Assembly (NCBI RefSeq): GCF_003991155.1
Contig: NZ_CP031293.1
Direction: 5' to 3' (one strand)
Origin: Escherichia coli
GTDB taxonomy: Bacteria > Pseudomonadota > Gammaproteobacteria > Enterobacterales > Enterobacteriaceae
DNA: 64,000 bases
The translations under genes and the position numbers were made by a program. This document shows, piece by piece, positions 9,685 to 51,300 of the stretch. Positions within the stretch are counted from its first letter, which is position 1. Each line of letters begins with the position of its first letter. The notes below the pieces were generated by a model. The model was given only the letters and a program-made list of their open reading frames with translations, was not told the origin of the DNA and did no database searches.

Positions 9685-10403
9685 CCGAGTTACCAATCGA
9701 CGAAAACACGCCACGTATTTTGATCGTGGAAGATGAACCGAAGCTGGGGCAGTTGCTTATTGATTATCTGCGTGCTGCGAGCTATGCGCCGACGCTTATC
9801 AGCCACGGCGATCAGGTACTGCCATATGTGCGCCAGACACCACCGGATCTGATCCTGTTGGATCTGATGCTCCCTGGCACCGATGGCCTGACGTTGTGTC
9901 GGGAGATTCGTCGTTTTTCTGACATTCCGATCGTGATGGTGACAGCAAAAATCGAAGAGATCGACCGCCTGCTCGGGCTGGAGATTGGCGCAGATGATTA
10001 TATCTGTAAGCCGTACAGCCCACGGGAAGTGGTAGCGCGCGTCAAAACCATTTTGCGCCGTTGCAAACCGCAGCGCGAGTTGCAGCAACAGGATGCTGAA
10101 AGCCCGTTGATTATCGACGAAGGTCGTTTTCAGGCTTCATGGCGCGGAAAAATGCTTGACCTGACGCCTGCGGAATTTCGTCTGCTGAAAACGCTCTCTC
10201 ATGAACCAGGAAAAGTGTTCTCCCGCGAGCAATTGCTCAATCATCTTTATGACGACTACCGCGTAGTAACCGACCGCACCATCGACAGCCACATTAAAAA
10301 CCTGCGCCGCAAGCTGGAATCTCTCGACGCCGAACAGTCATTTATCCGCGCCGTTTACGGCGTCGGTTACCGCTGGGAAGCCGACGCCTGCCGCATCGTT
10401 TAA
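9681..10403 (+). CDS. baeR: OmpR-family response regulator BaeR
   Basis: 240 aa; receiver domain ([10 protein letters not shown]) plus winged-helix output domain; overlaps baeS stop. Confidence 0.9.
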
Positions 10404-10582
10404 TATTTTTACCTGCCGGAGAAGGCATTCACGCCGCATCCGGCAACATTATCCCATGCATTGTCGGCTATCTGACATTATCTCTCCGCCCTGGCAAGCA
10501 CCTGAAAATCGCTCATACTTTAATCGGCAAACAGTCCTTTTAGATGCTGTTTTCGATACGCAATTTCAATCAAGGAGTCATT

Positions 10583-10915
10583 ATGGCTGGTTGGTTTGAA
10601 CTCAGTAAGAGCAGTGATAATCAGTTCCGGTTTGTGCTAAAAGCGGGCAATGGTGAGACTATCCTCACCAGCGAGCTGTATACCTCAAAAGCCTCTGCGG
10701 AAAAGGGCATCGCGTCGGTACGTAGCAACAGCCCGCAAGAAGAACGCTATGAGAAAAAAACGGCAAGCAACGGCAAATTCTATTTCAATCTGAAAGCCGC
10801 CAATCATCAAATTATCGGCTCCAGCCAGATGTACGCCACCGCGCAATCTCGTGAAACCGGAATTGCCTCCGTTAAAGCCAATGGCACAAGCCAGACGGTA
10901 AAAGACAATACGTAA
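10583..10915 (+). CDS. yegP: DUF1508 (YegP-like) tandem-repeat protein
   Basis: ATG 39 nt into the 10544 ORF, preceded by AAGGAG; 110 aa with two internal repeats; start choice by SD and K-12 length. Confidence 0.8.
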   Translation: MAGWFELSKSSDNQFRFVLKAGNGETILTSELYTSKASAEKGIASVRSNSPQEERYEKKTASNGKFYFNLKAANHQIIGSSQMYATAQSRETGIASVKANGTSQTVKDNT

Positions 10916-10917
10916 TT

Positions 10918-10950
10918 ACGATGCCGGGCGTGGGTTGTTGGCGTCCGGCT
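10918..10950 (+). terminator. Putative rho-independent terminator downstream of yegP
   Basis: GC hairpin (GCCGGGCG...CGTCCGGC) followed by TTTATAT; approximate coordinates. Confidence 0.45.
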
Positions 10951-11168
10951 TTATATCAAAACAACTCTTAGTTATTGATAATTAAGATTAACCTCCGCCA
11001 TTAAAATAGTGGGCACTGACGAGCACTCGTTGTGCTTTCTTTGTTTACCATCCCATACTTATCTTCCTGAACATGTTCATATGCCAAAATATCTTCTAAT
11101 ACTTTCGTGACGCTATCCGGTTTATGAAATACACTGATGTAAGATTTTTACTTACAGGCGGGTGTAAA

Positions 11169-11420
11169 ATGGCCAGAACGATGACGGTTGATCTCGGCGA
11201 TGAGTTGCGTGAATTTATCGAGTCCTTAATTGAATCCGGCGACTATCGCACCCAAAGCGAAGTGATCCGTGAGTCGCTGCGCTTACTTCGAGAAAAGCAA
11301 GCAGAGTCTCGCCTGCAAGCGTTACGTGACATGCTCGCTGAAGGGTTGAGTAGTGGTGAAGCTCAGCCGTGGGAAAAGGACGCGTTTTTACGGAAGGTGA
11401 AAGCAGGGATAAGGAAATAA
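11169..11420 (+). CDS. ParD/RHH-family type II antitoxin
   Basis: Small ORF with ParD-like sequence (SEVIRESLRLLREKQ...LQALR..L.EG..SG); in-frame ATG at 11169 chosen from the 11124 ORF; stop 1 nt before the toxin start. Confidence 0.75.
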   Translation: MARTMTVDLGDELREFIESLIESGDYRTQSEVIRESLRLLREKQAESRLQALRDMLAEGLSSGEAQPWEKDAFLRKVKAGIRK

Positions 11421-11421
11421 T

Positions 11422-11718
11422 GTGCGTACTATAAAACTCATGCCAAAAGCCAATGAGGATTTAGAAGGCATCTGGTATTACAGCTATCACCATTTCGGCG
11501 AACCACAAGCCGACAGATATGTGGAACATCTTTCAGACGTTCTCCAGATTCTGAGTAACAATAATATAGGTACGCCCAGACCTGAATTAGGCGAAGGTAT
11601 TTTTGTTCTTCCTTTTGAACGCCACGTAATTTATTTCCTGCAATCGCCAGAGGAAATTATCGTCATTCGTATCCTTAACCAAAACCAGGACGCCTCCAGA
11701 CATTTACACTGGAGCTAA
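11422..11718 (+). CDS. ParE/RelE-superfamily type II toxin
   Basis: 98-aa ORF (GTG start) directly after the antitoxin; ParE-like motifs (EDLEGIWYY...GEPQADRYV...GTPRPELG); alternative ATG at 11440. Confidence 0.75.
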   Translation: MRTIKLMPKANEDLEGIWYYSYHHFGEPQADRYVEHLSDVLQILSNNNIGTPRPELGEGIFVLPFERHVIYFLQSPEEIIVIRILNQNQDASRHLHWS

Positions 11719-11820
11719 ACCCGCCGATTGCGCTACAATGCCCGCCCTTAAAGTGGGGGCACTCCCCTAACCGCTTCATCAGGTGAAGCGGATCTGACCT
11801 GTCATCAGAACGAGAGAATT

Positions 11821-13182
11821 ATGTTTAAACCGGAACTCCTTTCCCCGGCGGGAACGCTGAAAAATATGCGTTACGCTTTCGCTTATGGCGCAGATGCTGT
11901 TTATGCGGGCCAGCCGCGTTACTCCCTGCGTGTGCGCAACAACGAATTCAACCACGAAAATCTCCAGCTCGGCATCAATGAAGCCCACGCGCTGGGGAAA
12001 AAGTTTTATGTCGTGGTCAACATTGCACCGCACAACGCCAAGCTGAAAACCTTTATCCGTGACCTGAAACCGGTGGTGGAGATGGGGCCGGATGCGCTGA
12101 TTATGTCCGATCCAGGGCTGATTATGCTGGTGCGCGAGCACTTCCCTGAAATGCCGATCCACCTCTCGGTGCAGGCTAACGCCGTGAACTGGGCGACGGT
12201 GAAATTCTGGCAGCAAATGGGACTGACCCGCGTGATCCTCTCTCGCGAGCTGTCGCTGGAAGAGATTGAAGAGATCCGTAATCAGGTGCCGGATATGGAG
12301 ATCGAGATCTTCGTTCACGGTGCGCTGTGCATGGCCTACTCCGGTCGCTGCCTGCTCTCTGGCTATATCAACAAGCGCGACCCGAACCAGGGCACCTGCA
12401 CCAACGCCTGCCGCTGGGAGTACAACGTCCAGGAAGGGAAAGAAGATGACGTTGGCAACATCGTGCACAAGTACGAGCCGATTCCGGTGCAAAATGTTGA
12501 GCCGACGCTGGGCATCGGCGCGCCAACCGACAAAGTGTTTATGATCGAAGAAGCTCAGCGTCCGGGCGAGTATATGACTGCGTTTGAAGATGAGCACGGC
12601 ACTTACATCATGAACTCGAAAGATCTGCGCGCTATCGCCCACGTTGAACGCCTGACCAAAATGGGCGTGCATTCGCTGAAAATCGAAGGTCGTACAAAAT
12701 CTTTCTACTATTGCGCACGCACCGCGCAGGTTTACCGTAAAGCTATCGATGACGCAGCTGCGGGAAAACCATTCGATACCAGCCTGCTGGAAACTCTGGA
12801 AGGTCTGGCGCATCGTGGCTATACCGAAGGTTTCCTGCGTCGTCATACTCACGACGATTATCAGAACTACGAATACGGTTATTCAGTTTCTGACCGCCAG
12901 CAGTTTGTTGGTGAGTTTACCGGTGAGCGCAAGGGCGACCTCGCGGCGGTAGCGGTGAAAAATAAATTCTCCGTTGGCGACAGCCTTGAGCTGATGACGC
13001 CGCAAGGGAACATTAACTTTACCCTTGAGCATATGGAAAACGCCAAAGGCGAAGCAATGCCGGTCGCACCGGGCGATGGTTATACTGTGTGGATCCCGGT
13101 GCCGCAGGATCTTGAGCTAAATTACGCGCTGCTGATGCGTAATTTCTCCGGGGAAACCACGCGTAACCCCCACGGTAAGTGA
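11821..13182 (+). CDS. trhP: Peptidase U32-family protein YegQ (tRNA hydroxylation protein TrhP)
   Basis: 453-aa ORF with U32 collagenase-family sequence; conserved neighbour of yegP and cyaR. Confidence 0.9.
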   Translation: MFKPELLSPAGTLKNMRYAFAYGADAVYAGQPRYSLRVRNNEFNHENLQLGINEAHALGKKFYVVVNIAPHNAKLKTFIRDLKPVVEMGPDALIMSDPGLIMLVREHFPEMPIHLSVQANAVNWATVKFWQQMGLTRVILSRELSLEEIEEIRNQVPDMEIEIFVHGALCMAYSGRCLLSGYINKRDPNQGTCTNACRWEYNVQEGKEDDVGNIVHKYEPIPVQNVEPTLGIGAPTDKVFMIEEAQRPGEYMTAFEDEHGTYIMNSKDLRAIAHVERLTKMGVHSLKIEGRTKSFYYCARTAQVYRKAIDDAAAGKPFDTSLLETLEGLAHRGYTEGFLRRHTHDDYQNYEYGYSVSDRQQFVGEFTGERKGDLAAVAVKNKFSVGDSLELMTPQGNINFTLEHMENAKGEAMPVAPGDGYTVWIPVPQDLELNYALLMRNFSGETTRNPHGK

Positions 13183-13266
13183 TTAATTTCGATTATTTTT
13201 CCCGGATGGAAAATTCTTAGAAACCGATCACATACAGCTGCATTTATTAAGGTTATCATCCGTTTC

Positions 13267-13353
13267 GCTGAAAAACATAACCCATAAAATGCTAGCTGTA
13301 CCAGGAACCACCTCCTTAGCCTGTGTAATCTCCCTTACACGGGCTTATTTTTT
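13267..13353 (+). ncRNA. cyaR: CyaR (RyeE) Hfq-dependent sRNA
   Basis: 87-nt sequence GCTGAAAAACATAACCCATAAAATGCTAGCTGTACCAGGAACCACCTCCTTAGCCTGTGTAATCTCCCTTACACGGGCTTATTTTTT matches my memory of CyaR, including the terminal hairpin and U-run. Confidence 0.85.
13327..13353 (-). other. Phage P2-type attB core overlapping the cyaR terminator
   Basis: Reverse complement reads AAAAAATAAGCCCGTGTAAGGGAGATT, which I recall as the P2 att core; no prophage genes follow. Confidence 0.55.
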
Positions 13354-13511
13354 ATGCATAAGCCCTATCTCTGGTAACCGTCTTCCATTGACCACATCGA
13401 TAGAATCTCCCTTCATAGCACGATGCCTTTCACTTATTGGCATCGTGCTCGCACAGGTTCCGGTTACGCACAGCCAGAACGCGCATGTTTGACGCTTACC
13501 AAAAAATATTC

Positions 13512-13829
13512 TCACTCTCCACATTTGAATGTCAGACGAGCGACGCCATGTAATCCTGCACCTTCTGTCTTCAATTTAACTATCTGCATTTTTTTGCCCT
13601 GTGTAACACAGAAATGAACTGCATCATTTTTTACTATATTTTCTGCACCAGATATTCTACCCCTGGCTAAAGAAGCTTCGGCTTCGGTGTAGTATTGGTT
13701 ATCGAGTTTACGCTGAATATTACTTTTATATGCAAGACCAAATTTACCGATACTTGTCTCATCATTATGTACAGCACACCCAGACATAAGAAAAACACTA
13801 ATTAATGATATAGCAGCTATCTTTTTCAT
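13512..13829 (-). CDS. yegR: Lipoprotein YegR
   Basis: Start taken at MKKIAAISLISVFLMSGC (lipobox) inside the 13512..13889 ORF; 105 aa. Confidence 0.8.
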   Translation of the reverse strand: MKKIAAISLISVFLMSGCAVHNDETSIGKFGLAYKSNIQRKLDNQYYTEAEASLARGRISGAENIVKNDAVHFCVTQGKKMQIVKLKTEGAGLHGVARLTFKCGE

Positions 13830-35884: not shown

Positions 35885-37222
35885 CTAAGTCTCCCAACAA
35901 AGACCATCGATCACATAACAAACGGTGGAAAGTGGGAATGTGTGCAGATAACGCTGGGTAATCCCTACTCCACTCTTTTCATGACCTACCACCTGTTGCA
36001 GATGCGCCAAATTACTCACCCAACCAGCTAAACAAGTAGAAATCATAGTATGCCGGAAACTATGCACCAAGCGCCGCTGCCCATAATCATCAAGATAAGG
36101 AATATCAAGCTGATCACGAACATCTGAAAGAACTTTACCTATCTTTGACATATTTCGACCTGAGACTTCCGAAAAGATTTTCTCTTTCCATTGGCGGTTA
36201 ACAAAATCCAGAAACCCCCACTCAATCAGTTTGGGATGAATCACTACCTGTCTTGTAGCATTCTCAGTTTTACCCAGCCTTCTTTCCGCGATCAGAAGAT
36301 AGTGCCGCTGGCTATCTTCATCAAATTTGATCTGCGACTTCTCCAGTTTAGCAATCTCACCTCTTCTGGCTCCTGTGTACGCCAACAACAAAGTGATCCA
36401 CTTCTGCCATCCATCAGGCTGCTTTAGTGCCCATCCTACAAATTTTTTCATTTCTGCTGCACTGTATGCACCAAACCTAGCTTTGGATGGTGCCGCTACT
36501 ATTCCATCAGTCGGAGACTTAGATAGAATATCTTTGTTTTCAGTCAGAAATGTTTTGAATAACGATTTGTAGATTTTAAGGTGCTTATGTACAGCCTCAG
36601 CACCAACTAAATCCTCTGGCAGCACATCATCACATTCGATTAGTTGCTGAATAGTCATTGACCTATACGGTTGCACTACACGCTTTGGTAAGTTTTCGAC
36701 AGTTTCCATTACTCGCTTAATATCTTGTTTGGTGATTGCCGTTACGTCTGTTTCTTTTCCCAAGACAACAAGCAATACCTCCATATAACGCTCATTTGCC
36801 ATTGAGATCGATTTTGTCCAATTTCGACCTCTTTCCTCCTTGTACATAGCCCACGCATCAGCAAGTGTTAGCACCTTTTCCGGTTTGGCTGGTGGTTGAA
36901 GCTGCAAAACTTCTTTAGAAATATTGTTCAATTGCTGAGGGAGTGGCAACGGAATCATTACGTTACGTGACGAAGCGATCAAGTTTGAAACAAACTTATT
37001 AAATTGTGGCAACGGAGTAGCGAGTGATTTAACGAAAGGAATGTGCGGAGTAAGGCCAATCATCAACGCCGATGCTTCGCGATAACTGTCAGTAAAAAGT
37101 GATTTTTTGTATATCCGACCATCCGAAAGCCGGATTTGTAGATAGTAATTACCGTTTCGCTGAAATGTGTATGGGAGAGTTCTTGACCTCATAAACGCCC
37201 CCTTTTTGTACCTTAACAGCAT
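35885..37222 (-). CDS. Tyrosine site-specific integrase
   Basis: 445 aa; C-terminal catalytic region with HSFRHT and GITQRYLH; starts 53 bp from the right direct repeat. Confidence 0.85.
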   Translation of the reverse strand: MLLRYKKGAFMRSRTLPYTFQRNGNYYLQIRLSDGRIYKKSLFTDSYREASALMIGLTPHIPFVKSLATPLPQFNKFVSNLIASSRNVMIPLPLPQQLNNISKEVLQLQPPAKPEKVLTLADAWAMYKEERGRNWTKSISMANERYMEVLLVVLGKETDVTAITKQDIKRVMETVENLPKRVVQPYRSMTIQQLIECDDVLPEDLVGAEAVHKHLKIYKSLFKTFLTENKDILSKSPTDGIVAAPSKARFGAYSAAEMKKFVGWALKQPDGWQKWITLLLAYTGARRGEIAKLEKSQIKFDEDSQRHYLLIAERRLGKTENATRQVVIHPKLIEWGFLDFVNRQWKEKIFSEVSGRNMSKIGKVLSDVRDQLDIPYLDDYGQRRLVHSFRHTMISTCLAGWVSNLAHLQQVVGHEKSGVGITQRYLHTFPLSTVCYVIDGLCWET

Positions 37223-37275
37223 GATTTATGGTCAAAAAGAGATACAACCACATAATTTTCAAGACTATTTTGGCC

Positions 37276-37357
37276 CCCTACGCTGGCATTATCCAGATCA
37301 GGTGATACGGGTATTTCTCAGCCTTCACGCAGAAGGGCACCCCGAGTCGTTTGGTTG
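37276..37357. repeat. 82-bp direct repeat, right copy (attR-like); duplicate of the thiM aptamer segment
   Basis: Identical to 29544..29625; followed by native sequence leading into rcnR. Confidence 0.9.
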
Positions 37358-37445
37358 CGATGATAAATCGCAAAGGAGGATGGTAATGTCCAGCGCACGC
37401 GTTGTAAACGAGGAAAAACGGCAGTTTTACAATCGCGTTAATAAA

Positions 37446-37718
37446 TTATTTGATATATGAATCCAGCACCTTCAGAACGACATCCAGATCTTCTTCACGT
37501 TTTAGCTCATCCCCCTGGTGAACGATGTGTTCCGTCAGATGACCTTTAATCACTTCCCGCATCAGACCGTTTACCGCGCCACGGATAGCAGCAATCTGTT
37601 GTAAAACTGCAGCGCATTCGTGCGGCTCGTCGAGCATTTTCTTGAGCGCCACGACCTGGCCCTGAATCTTACTGGCACGCGCTTTCAGTTTCTGTTTATC
37701 ACGGATGGTATGAGACAT
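37446..37718 (-). CDS. rcnR: Ni/Co-responsive repressor RcnR
   Basis: 90-aa ORF, CsoR/RcnR family; divergent from rcnA. Confidence 0.9.
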
Positions 37719-37766
37719 GGCAACACCTGGTTAACAAGAATATGAAAAATCATAGCACTATTAATC

Positions 37767-37801
37767 TACTGGGGGGTAGTATCAGGTACTGGGGGGGAGT
37801 A
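37767..37801. promoter_or_regulatory. RcnR operator sites (TACT-G6/7-AGTA) in the rcnR-rcnA intergenic region
   Basis: TACTGGGGGGTAGTA and TACTGGGGGGGAGTA, 5 bp apart; matches the RcnR recognition motif as I recall it. Confidence 0.7.
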
Positions 37802-37838
37802 GAATCAGATTGCCGAATTAATACTAAGAATTATTATC

Positions 37839-38648
<810 letters not shown>

Positions 38649-38866
38649 CTCAATCCTTTAGGCTTGCATGTTATCTTCAGCCCAGGATGATTCTTAAATC
38701 AGCTATTTCCGCTGACTCTCTGCTCGCTAAGGATGCTTTTAGGGCATCCTTTCATTTACACTTTTTACGAAATCATGGGATCACTAACAAAATATCGCTT
38801 GTCAGTTATATTGTATGGCAGGAAAGATATGCGACTGATATTACAGATCCCCAAAGTGGAGAGTTT

Positions 38867-39205
38867 ATGACCATTAAAAATAAGATGTTGCTGGGTGCGC
38901 TTTTGCTGGTTACCAGTGCCGCCTGGGCCGCACCAGCCACCGCGGGTTCGACCAATACCTCGGGAATTTCTAAGTATGAGTTAAGCAGTTTCATTGCTGA
39001 CTTTAAGCATTTCAAACCAGGTGACACCGTACCAGAAATGTACCGTACCGATGAGTACAACATTAAGCAGTGGCAGTTACGTAACCTGCCCGCGCCTGAT
39101 GCCGGGACGCACTGGACCTATATGGGTGGCGCGTACGTGTTGATCAGCGACACCGACGGTAAAATCATTAAAGCCTACGACGGTGAGATTTTTTATCATC
39201 GCTAA
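38867..39205 (+). CDS. rcnB: Periplasmic Ni/Co homeostasis protein RcnB
   Basis: Start at MTIKNKMLLGALLLVTSAAWA (signal peptide) inside the longer 38687 ORF; 112 aa. Confidence 0.8.
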   Translation: MTIKNKMLLGALLLVTSAAWAAPATAGSTNTSGISKYELSSFIADFKHFKPGDTVPEMYRTDEYNIKQWQLRNLPAPDAGTHWTYMGGAYVLISDTDGKIIKAYDGEIFYHR

Positions 39206-39230
39206 AAAAAGCCCCCTCGGAGAGAGGGGG
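39204..39230 (-). terminator. Rho-independent terminator downstream of yehA
   Basis: Hairpin CCCCCTC-GGAGA-GAGGGGG preceded on the plus strand by A7 (U7 on minus); approximate. Confidence 0.55.
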
Positions 39231-39286
39231 AAATGCAAACACCTTGTTATTTTTTATTATTAGCCACTTGCTCGTCTTGCTTATTA

Positions 39287-40321
39287 TTAGTCGTATTTCA
39301 CATTGATTAATGCGGTTGCCTCCAGTGCGCCAGATTTAACTTTGTTTGTATCGTAAACGTAGTAACTGGCCGTTATCGGAATTGAAACCGTTGTATCTGT
39401 AAGTTTTGACTTTGCCGCAATTTCTTTTAAATTTGTATATCCTTTACTGCTGTTAGTGATATTTAAAAGTGTGACTGGCGTACCATTACTTTCAAGAATA
39501 AATCCTACGCCATTATCTTCCGCACCTTTCAGGATCGTGTTGCTGTTGGTTAACAAGTCAGAACTTGATAAATACACCTGCATTTTCCGTGATGTTTGAT
39601 TTTGTTGACCTAATAAGTTTTTACAACGCAGAACAATATCCCCTTTGTTACTATTTATTGTTGCTTTGTTACCTGTAGCTGGTAATTGTGAAACGGGAAT
39701 ACTCTCTAACGTAATTAATAAATCGTCCGGTTTGCAGGTTGTGGTTATCGGGTTGTATGACAATGTCAGATTAAAGGAATAGACACCTGCATTTTGTGCC
39801 AATGCATTTCTGTAGCTATTTACACATGCATCCCATGACTTGCCACCGAATAAACACAGTAAAAATTGTACTGCAGCACTCCCGCGTGTCGATGATGAAG
39901 CACTGGATAATGTCGCAACACCATTAATCATCACTGAACCGCCGCCCCCCGCAGAAACATTCACTTTTGCATTACTGGCCGCAGGTGTCACCGTTACCGA
40001 ATAACCACTGGTGAAACTGGTCTGAGTATTTGACAACGTGATGTTGTTTTTATTGGTCCATTCAAAATGTAAATTTAATTTAATGGTATCGTTATAAAGT
40101 CCAACAATAATATCCGACGGGCTCATAGGGGTGATAGTATTTGTACTCACGCATGACGAATCATTAAAATTATGCTCATATGTCGCCATTTGTGTTTGAG
40201 TAAGTGCAAAATCCCCCTGAACAACCAAATTGTGCTGAACAGATAACTCACTATAACATGCTGCATAGCTCACAGGCATAACCATCATTATTAATATAAA
40301 TAGCATTATGCGAATTTCCAT
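39287..40321 (-). CDS. yehA: Chaperone-usher fimbrial tip adhesin-like protein YehA
   Basis: 344-aa ORF with signal peptide; last gene of yehDCBA. Confidence 0.85.
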   Translation of the reverse strand: MEIRIMLFILIMMVMPVSYAACYSELSVQHNLVVQGDFALTQTQMATYEHNFNDSSCVSTNTITPMSPSDIIVGLYNDTIKLNLHFEWTNKNNITLSNTQTSFTSGYSVTVTPAASNAKVNVSAGGGGSVMINGVATLSSASSSTRGSAAVQFLLCLFGGKSWDACVNSYRNALAQNAGVYSFNLTLSYNPITTTCKPDDLLITLESIPVSQLPATGNKATINSNKGDIVLRCKNLLGQQNQTSRKMQVYLSSSDLLTNSNTILKGAEDNGVGFILESNGTPVTLLNITNSSKGYTNLKEIAAKSKLTDTTVSIPITASYYVYDTNKVKSGALEATALINVKYD

Positions 40322-40336
40322 AGAACCACCTGACTA

Positions 40337-42832
40337 TTACTGGCAAATATAATTTTTACTTTCATCAATCTCTTTACCGAAGGTGATTGTGCATGAAAGC
40401 CCTTGTTGCTTATCAATTGCCACATTAACCGATGGCGGTACTTCATTGGTGCGAATAAATAACTGGCTTCCCTGGCCGACAACACCAATATTATGACCAT
40501 GGATATCATTGACTTCATAACCAAACGTTAATGGTTGCCCATCCGCTCTTAATGCTTTTATAAACCATGGCTTGCGCTGATCGGTATCAAAATTAACCAG
40601 TACAACCGCGCCGCGATAAGGGGCGGCAATTTTCCGGTTGCCACGTAATTCTGCTTCGCTATCGCTTTGTGACACATCCAACATCAGGTAATTTTCCCGA
40701 TAAGGTGTCATTCCGTCGTATACCACCACTCCATTACGGTTTGTTGTGCGATATTTTTGCCCATTGACATAAGCATCTTTAATTCCTGGCGCATTCATCA
40801 CAGCAAACGTTTCAGAAAGACGGTTTGCCAGATTAACGCCACCCGACCAGGCGACAATGCCCCCTGAAACACTGGCTCCAGCCTGTCGATAAGCACTCGA
40901 CTGACTATAACTGCCATTCACTGTCGCAACCGGCGCGTTCCAGGTTAAATTCGCCCCAGCTGTCGTTTCATTTCCCTGATACTGATAACTCAGGTTGACC
41001 CCATAGTTAAACTGATCCCGGCTTCCAACGGTTCCTGATAATCCCGTATTATTTGAGGCAACCCCCTGATCATCAAACGTCGTTGAGTTAGACATATATA
41101 TTTGCCGACGAGGCGTCGTAACGTCATCACCCCAATCAAAGGGAATCGATATAAAAATATTAAAACGTTTCTCTTCATGATGATTCTCGTCATAAGCCTG
41201 GCTTGCCGCGAGGGTATAGCTTATCCGTCGCAGGTTGTTGGAATAACTCAACTGATAATCCTTACTACTGCCGCTACGCCCCCAGTAATCTCGCCATAAC
41301 GTACTTAATGACACAGAACCCCAGCCTTCTGGCAATGACTGGCTCATATTAGCAGAAAAGCTATTTTTACGGCCAAAATCGTTCTGGTAATAATCGGCAA
41401 TGTCATAGATATCGTTTTCATCACGGCGATAATTATCTTTATTGTTTGCCCAAACGTGATCGTTAAATGTCCGGTAATCACGCGACGAATAACGCCAGGC
41501 TGCCAGACCAAAACGCGTCGACGTTTGGCTCACAAATTTGTTGTAGGCAATTTGATAACTTTGCCCGTCAAACACATCGCCGTTGTCTTGTTTACTATGC
41601 GACTTCGTGGCATCGACGGAAATGGCACCAATGCGTGTATTCCAGCCAGTCCCCAAAGTGAACGCGTAATAATTATTCGCGACCATCGATCCGCCATACA
41701 GCGTCAATAAGTTATTAAAACCATACTGATAACCCGCCTGAACAAAATCACTTTGTTTGCTCGCCCCTTCAATATGGCTACGACCTGCCGCAAAATCATA
41801 TTTCGACACGCCGGGTTGCAGCATATTCGGCACTGCTGCATAAGGCACCAGATAGGTGGTTACCGAACCGTCCGCCTCTTTCACGCTGACATCAAGATCT
41901 GCTCCACCACCGGCCAACTGCAAATCTGTAATCGCAAACGGGCCAGGAGGAACCTCTTTCTGATAAACCACAAAACCGTTCTGTTCAATAGTTACCAGCG
42001 CGTTACTCTGAGCAATCCCCTGCACCCGTGGCGTAAAATTCTGTTTCGAGTTAGGCAACATCTGCATATCACGAAACAACCGCACACCGCTGAAGCGAAC
42101 AGAATCAAAAATATCGCTTGATGTGTACATATCACCCACGCGAAGCGTGCCGAGAAGTTGGGCAAATCCACGTTCCAGATACAGGGTATTGCTTTTCCAC
42201 ACCCCTGGATTGCTATTTGTTTTACTGAAACTGGCATCAGAATGCAGTTGCCACCCCAGTAAGTTTAACCCGCTGTTAAAACGTACATATGTACTCTTGC
42301 TATTACCCGACGCTTTATAGTCGCTGTAATACTGACTCACATAATAAGAGGTATAAAACGCATTAATACCCCGCTCCCAGTTTTCCGGTGGAACATAGCC
42401 ACTTTCCAGTTCTTCCACCCACGCCTGCGGGACACTGAAATCGAGACGAAAAACTCCGATATCCCAGGTATAGCTCCCACCCTGAACAAGTTGCTCAAAT
42501 GTTAAACATTGCTTACCGCTGGCAAAGTTATCGGTATTAATGCCTAACCGCTTGATAATTTCCCTTGATAAACATGTTTCTTGCGGGTTGTCTTTAACAA
42601 TAATCTCATATTTCCCGCGCCATTGCTTATTGACATAAATATCGATGTCATACTGCCCCGGCAAGGGTTGATTATCATCAAGACGAATATTTGCAACCTG
42701 CTGGTCTTTCATTCCACCTATCATAAAATGGGTATCAAAGGTTTCTTCAGCTGCATAAGCTTCAATGCCGAGCAATAACGCTACGATTGCTGATGCAAGT
42801 GGGGTCATTCTCAACATAGGCAGCTCCTGCAA
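40337..42832 (-). CDS. yehB: Fimbrial outer-membrane usher YehB
   Basis: 831-aa usher-like ORF; true start possibly at MLRMTPL (42817). Confidence 0.85.
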   Translation of the reverse strand: MQELPMLRMTPLASAIVALLLGIEAYAAEETFDTHFMIGGMKDQQVANIRLDDNQPLPGQYDIDIYVNKQWRGKYEIIVKDNPQETCLSREIIKRLGINTDNFASGKQCLTFEQLVQGGSYTWDIGVFRLDFSVPQAWVEELESGYVPPENWERGINAFYTSYYVSQYYSDYKASGNSKSTYVRFNSGLNLLGWQLHSDASFSKTNSNPGVWKSNTLYLERGFAQLLGTLRVGDMYTSSDIFDSVRFSGVRLFRDMQMLPNSKQNFTPRVQGIAQSNALVTIEQNGFVVYQKEVPPGPFAITDLQLAGGGADLDVSVKEADGSVTTYLVPYAAVPNMLQPGVSKYDFAAGRSHIEGASKQSDFVQAGYQYGFNNLLTLYGGSMVANNYYAFTLGTGWNTRIGAISVDATKSHSKQDNGDVFDGQSYQIAYNKFVSQTSTRFGLAAWRYSSRDYRTFNDHVWANNKDNYRRDENDIYDIADYYQNDFGRKNSFSANMSQSLPEGWGSVSLSTLWRDYWGRSGSSKDYQLSYSNNLRRISYTLAASQAYDENHHEEKRFNIFISIPFDWGDDVTTPRRQIYMSNSTTFDDQGVASNNTGLSGTVGSRDQFNYGVNLSYQYQGNETTAGANLTWNAPVATVNGSYSQSSAYRQAGASVSGGIVAWSGGVNLANRLSETFAVMNAPGIKDAYVNGQKYRTTNRNGVVVYDGMTPYRENYLMLDVSQSDSEAELRGNRKIAAPYRGAVVLVNFDTDQRKPWFIKALRADGQPLTFGYEVNDIHGHNIGVVGQGSQLFIRTNEVPPSVNVAIDKQQGLSCTITFGKEIDESKNYICQ

Positions 42833-48384: not shown

Positions 48385-51300
48385 ATGAGACACTTTATCT
48401 ATCAGGACAAAAAATCACATAAATTCTGGGCGGTGGAGCAGCAAGGCAACGAGTTACATATCAGTTGGGGCAAAGTCGGCACTAACGGGCAAAACCAGGT
48501 AAAAAGCTTTGCTGATGCTGCGGCAGCGGCAAAAGCGGAGCTTAAGCTGATCGCGGAGAAAACGAAAAAAGGCTATGTGGAAAATGCTTCAGCAAACGTG
48601 CATATCCCCCCCATCACCAAAGCCACTCCTGAAGTTAAAACTCCCCCTGTGAGTCAAAATAAACACCCATGGCTGGCTGATGATGCAGTCATTCCTGTCA
48701 CTGACGATATTAATCGATTTGCTTTTCCACATCGCTCTCGCCCCAGAGAGATCAATTATCTGCACAAAGATGGTCAAATATGGCAGCGCATTGCGAATAA
48801 CACCAGGGCATATGACCCCGACAATAATTACCGCTCTTATCCTGAAAACTGGCAGCAAGCGTTTGCCGAGTTACAAAGTCGAATTCTGGACAATCAACAA
48901 ACAGGGAGTGCGCAATCTGATGCGGCATTGCTCTGGAGTTTTTGGAACTCTTACTCTGCAGATGAACTGGTCGATGACTTAGTCATTCGCTGTGGTCTGG
49001 AAAGTGCCGTTGAAATCGCCCTTTTTGCTCTTCAACTCAAATATAAACCAGTAAAAGGCGCAGTCACCACCATCATTCCACCTGGTCACAAAGCAGAATC
49101 GCTACCGAGTTGGCATCAACGTCTATGTCATCATCTTTCACTCGCTTCAGAAGATGAGTGGCAACGCTGTGTGAATAAAGTGCTTACTGCTATTCCGACG
49201 CTATCCCCAGCACGGCAACCTTTTGCGGCGTTACTGCTCCCTGAACGCCCGGATATTGCCAATGCTATGGCTCTACGTTACGCAGACCAAAACGTTCCGG
49301 CGATGACCTGGTTAAGACTGGTAGTAACCGATGATGCCGCTCTGACTGCAGCAGAAAAATACGACTTCCCACCGTTATATCGTGATTTTCGCGCTTATCT
49401 GGCAATGTTGCTGGCAAATAATGGGGTGAGCGGTGTAAGCCGGATACTTACTGAGTTTGTGGAAGAGCATTCTGACAATCCCACTTATCTCTTCGAGCGC
49501 ATCAGCGAGACTGAAGATCTTGTCAAATGGTTATGGAAAACGAATCACCCGGATGCGATTCAAATTCTGATCCTCGGTGTAATTGGCAAGAAAAAGCACC
49601 TGGAATACTTAAGCAAAGCCTGTCAAAAACATCCCGCTGCGGCTATTGCCGCTTATGCAACTTTGCTGGCAATACATGAAGATGCACAGTGGCGCAACGC
49701 GCTTGTCAAACTGGTTACCGTCACGCCAGAGTTGGTATGTGACGTCATTCCCTGGGTTAATGCTAAAGCGGCAGGCATCTTATCTGAATGTCGTCCGCAG
49801 CCAGTAGCTGAAGAATGTGAATATGCCACTGTGGATATGTTGCCGGAGCTGTTTGTTTCGCCGCCCTGGATGACCAAAGAGAAAAAGAAAAATACGCCTG
49901 TGTTTGATCTTCCAGTGCTTCCAGTTCCTTCTGTTTCTGATGTCACTCCCGAGATTGCCAAAAGACTAACCCGTACTTACCTTGTCACCCGCTTCCAGCA
50001 AATAGCCCAACAGCAGGCGACAAAACAAACATTGTTTACCGACCTGCCGCCGATAAAAAAAGCAAGCTGGGAGAAACACTTAATACCGCTTACACCGGAG
50101 CAACAAATACTGTGGCATCTTGGTTTTGAAAAATGGCGGGAAAGCGGAGAAAAAATCTACGAAAAAATTCCGGCGCCACAAAGCGCCGTTGATGCCCTGC
50201 TACGCTTCGATTTTCCAGCACTCAATGCTGAATTTGTGCAATACCATAACAATGCATACAAAAGCTGGAATCTCATTGCCCTCTGTTACCTGCCTGGTCA
50301 ACAGGCCATTTCTTTTCTTAACCAGATAGTCAAAGAAGATAACTACTCTGATGAGGGAAATATTCTGGCAATTTTTGGTAGCGCCGCCATACCTGCATTT
50401 ATGACCTGCCTGCAACGTGATCCACGACGTCTGTGCTTCTTCCCCTTTTTCCTCGGTGTCAGTGACCTGGCCTTACCGATGGCGCAACAATTACAGAAAA
50501 AAATGTCTTATGACGATGCGCGAAACTGGCTGACTGATTACCCGCGCCATGCCGCCGCCGGACTGCTTCCTGTAGCACTGGGTAAACACTGCCAAAATCG
50601 GGAATATGCCCGCCAGGCGCTCCGCCTGCTGGTGAATTTAAACCAACGAGAAACGATTGAGGAAATCGCCCGGGGGTATAACCAACCAGATGTTTTAGCT
50701 GCGCTGGCAACATTGTTCGATAGCGACCCACTGGAAGAATATCCTGCAAAAATCGCCCCATTGCCCGGCTTTTATCAGTTCACCTTATGGCGCAGACCAC
50801 GGCTTAAAAGTAACAATCTGCCTCTGTCCGATGACGCTATGCGCCACCTGGGCACTATGTTGAGCTTCCCTCGCGACATTACCGCCTACGCTGGACTGGA
50901 TATCATTAGAGAAATCTTCACCCGGGAATCACTGGCTGACTTTGGCTGGGATCTCTACACGGCATGGATGGAATCTGGCGCGCCCGCAAAAGAAAACTGG
51001 GCATTTACCTCGCTGGGGATTTTAGGCAATAACGACACCGCGCGTAAACTAACCCCGCTTATCCGGGCCTGGCCGGGTGAATCCCAGCATAAACGCGCGG
51101 TTTCTGGGCTCGATGTGTTAGCCAGTATCGGTAGCGATATTGCGCTGATGCTGCTTAATGGCATTGCACAAAAAATTAAATTCAAAGCATTGCAGGAACA
51201 TGCCCGCGACAAAATCAATATGGTCGCCGAAAATCGCGGATTGACAATGGCCGAACTGGAAGACCGCCTGGCTCCAGATTTAGGGCTTGATATCAACGGC

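Follow-up and report, generated by a model that had tools for sequence, protein, structure and literature searches.

What are the two small genes that stand between yegP and yegQ in this Escherichia coli chromosome, and how did they come to occupy a spacer that carries no gene in K-12? We addressed this question in a window of 64,000 nucleotides (contig NZ_CP031293.1), the relevant region of which is 100% identical to E. coli strain 2016C-3878. We consider it quite probable that the pair forms an intact chromosomal ParD/ParE type II operon, which would be transcribed from a weak promoter of its own, repressed and neutralised by ParD, and toxic through poisoning of gyrase by ParE. The case is built here on the integrity of the genes, the family and fold of their products, purifying selection, conservation of the probable operator and the pattern of presence and absence. 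Literature searches with the protein accessions, with yegP and ParE, and with yegQ and toxin-antitoxin returned no paper and no experimental study on this locus.

The accessory segment between yegP and yegQ

The flanking genes are yegP (10583..10915; DUF1508 match, 1.7e-45) and yegQ/trhP (11821..13182; Peptidase_U32 match, 5e-89). The spacer between them, estimated at about 900 bp in the first-pass annotation, measures 905 bp in the window and 146 bp in K-12, and the comparison with K-12 agrees with the first-pass statement that no gene lies there, both small genes being absent. The window has an accessory segment of 780 bp (10950..11729, plus strand), in place of which K-12 has the 21-bp filler GCTTTACCAGAGCCCCCCACA. 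The left junction falls between 10949 and 10950, directly 3' of the yegP terminator hairpin (10923..10949, plus strand, GCCGGGCG...CGTCCGGC), a terminator-like site obtained from a scan; the alignments of K-12 and E. albertii part from the window exactly after GGCGTCCGGC. At the right junction begins the upstream leader of yegQ/trhP (11730..11820, plus strand, GCGCTACAAT...), which is the right flank and lies outside the module. No integrase, transposase or mobility gene was found beside the segment, and the search for flanking direct or inverted repeats or target duplications around it gave no meaningful ones.

Two small co-directional ORFs had been described between yegP and yegQ, and we see them on the plus strand at 11124..11420 and 11422..11718, separated by 1 nt: the stop codon of parD occupies 11418-11420 and the GTG of parE follows at 11422. 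The layout is that of a type II toxin-antitoxin operon, with the antitoxin gene first, the toxin gene adjacent and the spacing tight. A 33-aa ORF (11009..11110) and some antisense ORFs are found in upstream DNA that has indels and is poorly conserved.

The yegQ/trhP leader is nearly invariant in seven Escherichia lineages, E. albertii included, among which the neighbouring genes have dS values of 0.3-0.9. It contains the hairpin CCGCTTCA-N5-TGAAGCGG, its fold z-score is only -1.2, and it may act as a conserved 5' UTR with a regulatory role. The Rfam search of 10400-13700 gave no match to the module or to this leader; it returned the CyaR sRNA downstream of yegQ, as expected (13265-13350, 100.7 bits), and a sub-threshold naRNA4 match. 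Between yegQ and yegR, K-12 has ogrK/P2-remnant genes (L002 4796-5308) where the record of the window strain has no annotated gene, and this stretch is a second presence/absence difference close to the parDE site.

The antitoxin, its start codon and its probable operator

The upstream ORF had been assigned to a ParD/RHH-type antitoxin, and the HMM search confirmed the assignment: the protein scored above the curated cut-offs of Pfam PF03693 (ParD_antitoxin; 4.3e-19, 69.2 bits against a cut-off of 21, residues 1-78) and of TIGR02606 (CC2985-type ParD; 2.3e-25, 88.4 bits against 46.2), and gave a weak match to the RHH_1 profile. ParD chains in the PDB were matched with E values from 1.9e-27 to 8e-6, the best being PrpA (7YCS chain D; 61% identity over 77 residues, E 1.9e-27).

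The start of the gene had been placed at 11124. An ORF does open there, but the antitoxin itself probably begins at ATG 11169, 45 nt downstream, and is most likely a ribbon-helix-helix protein of 83 aa (MARTMTVDLG...; 11169..11420, plus strand) rather than one of 98 aa. The Pfam and TIGR matches both start at the first residues of MARTMTV; the start ATGGC(C/A) is invariant in the plasmid homologues and reads ATGGCC at 11169 in the window; in E. whittamii and in Escherichia lineage L018 only the 83-aa frame is open, because a +1 indel lies between both ATGs. Models of 83 aa and of 98 aa are present in public databases. The RefSeq model (WP_001329834.1) runs from ATG 11124 and has 98 aa; this RefSeq/PGAP model probably includes 15 codons in excess at its start, and the extra stretch (11124-11168) covers both the putative -10 hexamer and the palindrome described below.

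Alignment with the plasmid homologues points to a putative sigma-70 promoter of parDE at 11107..11135 (plus strand), composed of a -35 GTGACG (11107-11112), a spacer of 17 nt and a -10 TACACT (11130-11135). At the same position the Klebsiella and Pantoea plasmids have TATAAT or TATAGT, which ends 3 nt before the palindrome. The window promoter matches only 8/12 consensus positions, and for this reason the consensus promoter scan reported none upstream of parDE.

The palindrome is an unstranded inverted repeat, TGTAAG-N7-CTTACA (11138..11156), with the core GTAAG-N7-CTTAC at 11139-11155. Its arms are conserved in upstream DNA that is otherwise unalignable among the homologues: of eight chromosomal and plasmid homologues that were aligned, six have identical arms, and a single arm mismatch is present in the Salmonella plasmid and in a frameshifted IncF remnant. 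The palindrome is found upstream of every parD examined, the orphan parD of a Citrobacter plasmid aside, and at these loci it is exact save in the Salmonella plasmid. The number of exact GTAAG-N7-CTTAC matches expected by chance in the window is zero, and only one non-coding operator-like site is present in it; a second match, at 49435, falls within an ORF of 1266 aa and was put down to chance. The palindrome is a probable ParD operator overlapping the transcription start, which is predicted at about 11142: ParD would read DNA with the strand RTMTVD, which PrpA has in the same or almost the same form, and the TGTAA core recurs in the motif TTTG(T/A)AAT footprinted for PrpA (PMC7848731, PMC9731233). 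RNA folding of the operator region is unremarkable (z -1.7), and so is that of the yegQ leader.

Relatives, distribution and history

The closest solved and characterised relative is PrpA/PrpT from the Pseudoalteromonas rubra megaplasmid pMBL6842 (PDB 7YCS). Its architecture is like that of the E. coli pair, antitoxin first and PF03693 combined with PF05016; the strand RTMTVD is common to both antitoxins, and PrpT is 34% identical to ParE (TM 0.88). Overexpressed PrpT kills E. coli and causes filamentation, and PrpA neutralises PrpT and binds the prpAT promoter (PMC7848731); gyrase is absent from the PrpT papers (PMC7848731, PMC9731233). PrpAT resides on a plasmid and has an 8-nt overlap between its genes, and PrpA also binds the origin iterons and thereby limits plasmid copy number (PMC7848731). 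The E. coli pair, in contrast, is chromosomal, has the 1-nt gap and has a probable operator GTAAG-N7-CTTAC rather than TTTG(T/A)AAT. The traits of a copy-number controller of the PrpA/PrpT type were not found, as 1843/1843 copies are chromosomal and no replication gene or origin is nearby.

Paralogues with 68-71% nucleotide identity over the whole pair occur in 880 plasmid records, and their hosts include Escherichia, Klebsiella, Enterobacter, Salmonella, Citrobacter, Yersinia and others. Those of Salmonella pRM11065-1, Pantoea pDSJ09, Klebsiella pINF078-VP and Citrobacter TSA-1 have genes of the same sizes and the same parD start, and promoter DNA unrelated to that of the E. coli pair save for the -10 region and the operator. 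The Salmonella pair (L004) is intact, with a 14-nt parD/parE overlap, and the antitoxin is more conserved than the toxin: 88% versus 68% identity for this plasmid, 61% versus 34% for PrpA/PrpT. The E. coli IncFIA/FIB/FIC plasmid pLAO103 has a 68%-identical parDE (L005, 2300-2900) about 1.3 kb from a RepB-family initiator gene; this copy is frameshifted, with ParD truncated at 60 aa and ParE without its N-terminus. Many of the 460 Escherichia plasmid matches show the same 68% identity and have no annotated gene. In the plasmid of Citrobacter sp. TSA-1 (L023, 1501-2857) an orphan parD stands before a complete parDE in a tandem arrangement, and the exact palindrome occurs twice on this plasmid with two parD genes. 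A decayed relative is present on the chromosome of Pluralibacter gergoviae (L008, 3718-4290), with ParE 69% identical and truncated at 43 aa; it has the same operator palindrome and a different site, between alanine-racemase-like and aminotransferase-like genes. ParDE-I of IncI/IncF plasmids was considered as a relative as well; going by its published description (PMC6614396), in which the toxin shares only 15% identity with Caulobacter ParE1, it looks like a different lineage.

Where they are present, parD and parE are under purifying selection and are kept as coding sequences. When E. coli is compared with E. whittamii, synonymous differences number 10 in parD and 12 in parE, and non-synonymous ones 1 and 7, so that dN/dS is 0.03 for parD and 0.13 for parE; against the Salmonella plasmid pair the dN/dS of parE is about 0.1, and the range for parE is 0.11-0.19.

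The stronger conservation of ParD than of ParE invites a different reading of the locus, namely that the chromosomal copy is weakly toxic or attenuated and is of value through ParD, which would counter addiction to related plasmid parDE modules or cross-regulate them, rather than through killing by ParE. This would agree with a probable operator common to chromosomal and plasmid copies, with the frameshifted IncF-type remnants on many E. coli plasmids, and with lineage L018, which has the same junctions as the window, an intact parD and two stop codons in parE. It would also agree with the Phe (Phe24, ...HHFGE...) that E. coli ParE has at the position equivalent to Trp25, the gyrase contact of VcParE2 from V. 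cholerae; VcParE2 is reported to inhibit gyrase, Trp25 is key for this interaction and W25F lowered toxicity (bioRxiv 10.1101/2025.07.24.666505). However, parE is itself under purifying selection and is full-length in essentially all of the 1843 carriers, and we regard this reading as unlikely. ParD-ParE pairs are, moreover, usually specific, as Fiebig et al. 2010 reportedly observed with Caulobacter paralogues. Because the probable operator and 88% of the ParD sequence are shared, chromosomal ParD could neutralise plasmid ParE or, in the manner of PrpA, act as a repressor of plasmid parDE or of plasmid replication; such cross-talk with the parDE of F-type and other enterobacterial plasmids is doubtful, and if true it could explain both the IncF frameshifted remnants and the difference in conservation between ParD and ParE.

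Among 5426 complete E. coli genomes, 1843 (34%) have parDE, each as one full-length chromosomal copy at yegP-yegQ. The copies fall into two allele groups: 188 genomes are at least 99% identical to the window, and about 1650, O104:H4, O103:H2, O111:H2 and ECOR29 included, are near 98.2%. The empty junction is present in at least 2142 genomes, K-12 and O157:H7 among them, a count that is a lower bound as further empty variants escape megablast; the empty site of E. albertii is the same as that of K-12. Outside E. coli, the full module is found at identical junctions in E. whittamii (L007), with ParE 93% identical. In Escherichia sp. E1V33 and E3659 about 66-85 bp of the left end and a frameshifted 3' half of parE remain, and E. 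coli strain HH97 has frameshifts in parD and parE.

A further state of the site is a 5.3-kb cassette of four genes, present in 298 E. coli genomes, IHE3034 and the type strain ATCC 11775 included, and occurring in B2 E. coli. It replaces the interior of the module, of which the initial 66 bp and, at the other end, the terminal 20 bp of parE are left. In IHE3034 (NC_017628.1; L020) the cassette spans 36064-41390 on the minus strand, corresponds to window 11016-11698 and encodes a hypothetical protein of 200 aa, a DUF4034 protein of 701 aa, a DUF1266 protein of 237 aa and a PcfJ-domain protein of 403 aa. The left end segment of the module (10950..11015, plus strand) is thus kept both where the interior is deleted, in E1V33 and E3659, and where the cassette stands instead. 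A stretch of about 17 bp (…AATAATG[G/A]G…ATAAG[C/T]TTCA) directly after this segment is common to the E1V33 and E3659 remnants and the IHE3034 cassette (L009 1420-1470; L017 2910-2960; L020 36150-36175) and is missing from the intact modules of the window and E. whittamii.

From this pattern of presence and absence, decay and replacement it follows that the module is an accessory element of the genus which has been repeatedly lost, replaced or inactivated. The nonsense codons in parE of L018, the frameshifts of HH97 and the remnants in E1V33 and E3659 indicate that it is dispensable. The first-pass annotation had called the locus an accessory insertion; the accessory nature holds, and the choice between insertion and later loss elsewhere is settled in part. 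Insertion is favoured since the empty site of K-12 matches that of E. albertii. In addition, the dS of the module between lineages is 0.14-0.23, against 0.33-0.94 for the flanking baeR, yegP and yegQ, so that acquisition followed by spread between lineages is favoured by these comparisons over simple vertical descent, with the polarity partly settled. Were the K-12 filler a remnant of parE, the empty site would be the scar of a deletion; this idea was rejected as not robust, since semi-global alignment with the right end of the module gave p values that varied among lineages (0.03-0.68). The 3' end of parE is native to the gene, given that the plasmid homologues also end in ...HW(R/Q/L)*. As to yegP itself, its dS between E. 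coli and E. whittamii/E1V33 is 0.76-1.06 (0.38-0.57 for baeR and yegQ), and against E. albertii it is 0.40-0.48; this unusual divergence from E. whittamii/E1V33, smaller from E. albertii, points to recombination at yegP or to replacement of its allele.

Toxin-antitoxin systems count among the known types of phage defence, and a spacer that holds parDE in some genomes and other cargo in 298 could be viewed as a 'defence hotspot', with the module serving in abortive infection. We find this quite improbable: neither ParD nor ParE matched any family of PADLOC-DB at E<=0.001, the four cassette proteins had no match against PADLOC either, no other defence genes are nearby, and phage genomes contain no close relative save one partial, 73%-identical Salmonella fragment among 50,697 phage records. 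A phage origin of the module was rejected on the same search.

The toxin and the proposed operation of the pair

The toxin gene parE (11422..11718, plus strand) starts with GTG, encodes 98 aa and is preceded by a Shine-Dalgarno sequence, AAGGA, 7 nt upstream of the GTG and within the 3' end of parD. That its product is a toxin of the ParE/RelE fold had been proposed, and this was upheld by the HMM search, in which it exceeded the cut-off of PF05016 (ParE_toxin; 6.9e-14, 52.6 bits against 23, profile positions 1-88 of 89), and by the ParE-type fold of its AlphaFold2 (AF2) model in Foldseek; a search of NCBIfam matched no model. PF05016 is a broad RelE/ParE family which takes in gyrase poisons and mRNases, and therefore the branch of the toxin was tested separately.

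In the PDB, the only significant sequence matches were to ParE toxins, namely PrpT (6e-13) and MtParE1, CcParE1 and VcParE2 (each about 2e-7), and a weak one to the chimeric ParE of M. opportunistum came next (6X0A, E 0.038). For the AF2 model, 85 homologues were used, drawn from a search with 2143 cluster representatives among its matches; the model has a pLDDT of 93.2 and consists of a two-helix hairpin and a three-stranded sheet (H8-25, H27-46, E60-65, E68-74, E78-86). Foldseek against the PDB placed ParE-type toxins at all of ranks 1-23, with TM 0.66-0.88. Judged by this model, the toxin is of the ParE type, closer to ParE than to RelE-type mRNases. That it would be a RelE-like ribosome-dependent mRNA endonuclease and not a gyrase poison is very improbable, for although RefSeq names it only a 'RelE/ParE family toxin' and RelE-type structures are found further down among the fold matches, the RelE, YoeB and YafQ mRNases reach only TM 0.5-0.66 there with E>1e-3, chains of RelE, YoeB, YafQ and HigB gave no PDB sequence match even at E<=10, the partner is a CC2985-type ParD, and the C-terminal motif R-I-L-N-Q-N-Q-D aligns with RVLHQSMD of the gyrase-inhibiting ParE1 proteins.

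The structures of Caulobacter ParDE1 (3KXE), M. tuberculosis ParDE1 (8C24) and V. cholerae ParDE2 (7R5A) represent chromosomal type II systems of the same family and fold, and their comparison with the E. coli pair gave TM 0.83-0.85 for ParE and E values of 1e-11 to 3e-12 for ParD. The identity of E. coli ParE to CcParE1, MtParE1 and VcParE2 is only 26-31%. The ParE toxins of these systems are reported to inhibit gyrase, MtParE1 among them (PMC10899793). ParE toxins differ in the region of gyrase that they target, gyrase is not a universal target, and P. aeruginosa ParE1 has been described as non-toxic (bioRxiv 10.1101/2025.07.24.666505). The ParE of Yersinia pYV/pCD1 is toxic and induces the SOS response, and its ParDE stabilises the plasmid (PMC10203498); this pair (ParD 80 aa, ParE 99 aa) is plasmid-borne and only 36% (ParD) and 32% (ParE) identical to ours. 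PaaR2-PaaA2-ParE2 of E. coli O157:H7 (5CW7) likewise has a ParE-fold toxin (TM 0.77), with an identity of 16-17%; it is, however, a three-component, prophage-borne system with an unrelated antitoxin, and O157:H7 is without the yegP-yegQ module.

By analogy with these homologues, from which toxicity, neutralisation, the gyrase target and autoregulation are inferred, the pair would probably operate as follows. The operon would be transcribed from its own weak promoter at about 11107-11135, and the translation of parD and parE would be coupled. ParD would form a ribbon-helix-helix dimer that most likely binds GTAAG-N7-CTTAC through its N-terminal strand and represses the operon, and the C-terminal part of ParD would wrap around ParE and neutralise it. 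Once labile ParD is degraded or no longer made, free ParE would be released, and would most likely poison DNA gyrase, leading to DNA damage, filamentation and growth arrest. For the cell, the pair could be a selfish addiction module, an anti-addiction factor or cross-regulator, a phage defence or a stress-response element.

The pair is a known and annotated member of a very well known family. Each protein occurs on at least 1000 public contigs, and we consider the pair ordinary because the public annotation already names both genes (WP_001329834.1 for ParD, WP_001259171.1 for the toxin). About one third of E. coli, the B1 pathogens O104:H4, O103:H2 and O111:H2 included, have this accessory toxin-antitoxin module, which is annotated as a matter of routine, and the finding matters little beyond annotation. 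What is useful in it is the probable correction of the ParD start and the recognition that the yegP-yegQ spacer is polymorphic, a small site that occurs in at least three states and is usable as a lineage marker.
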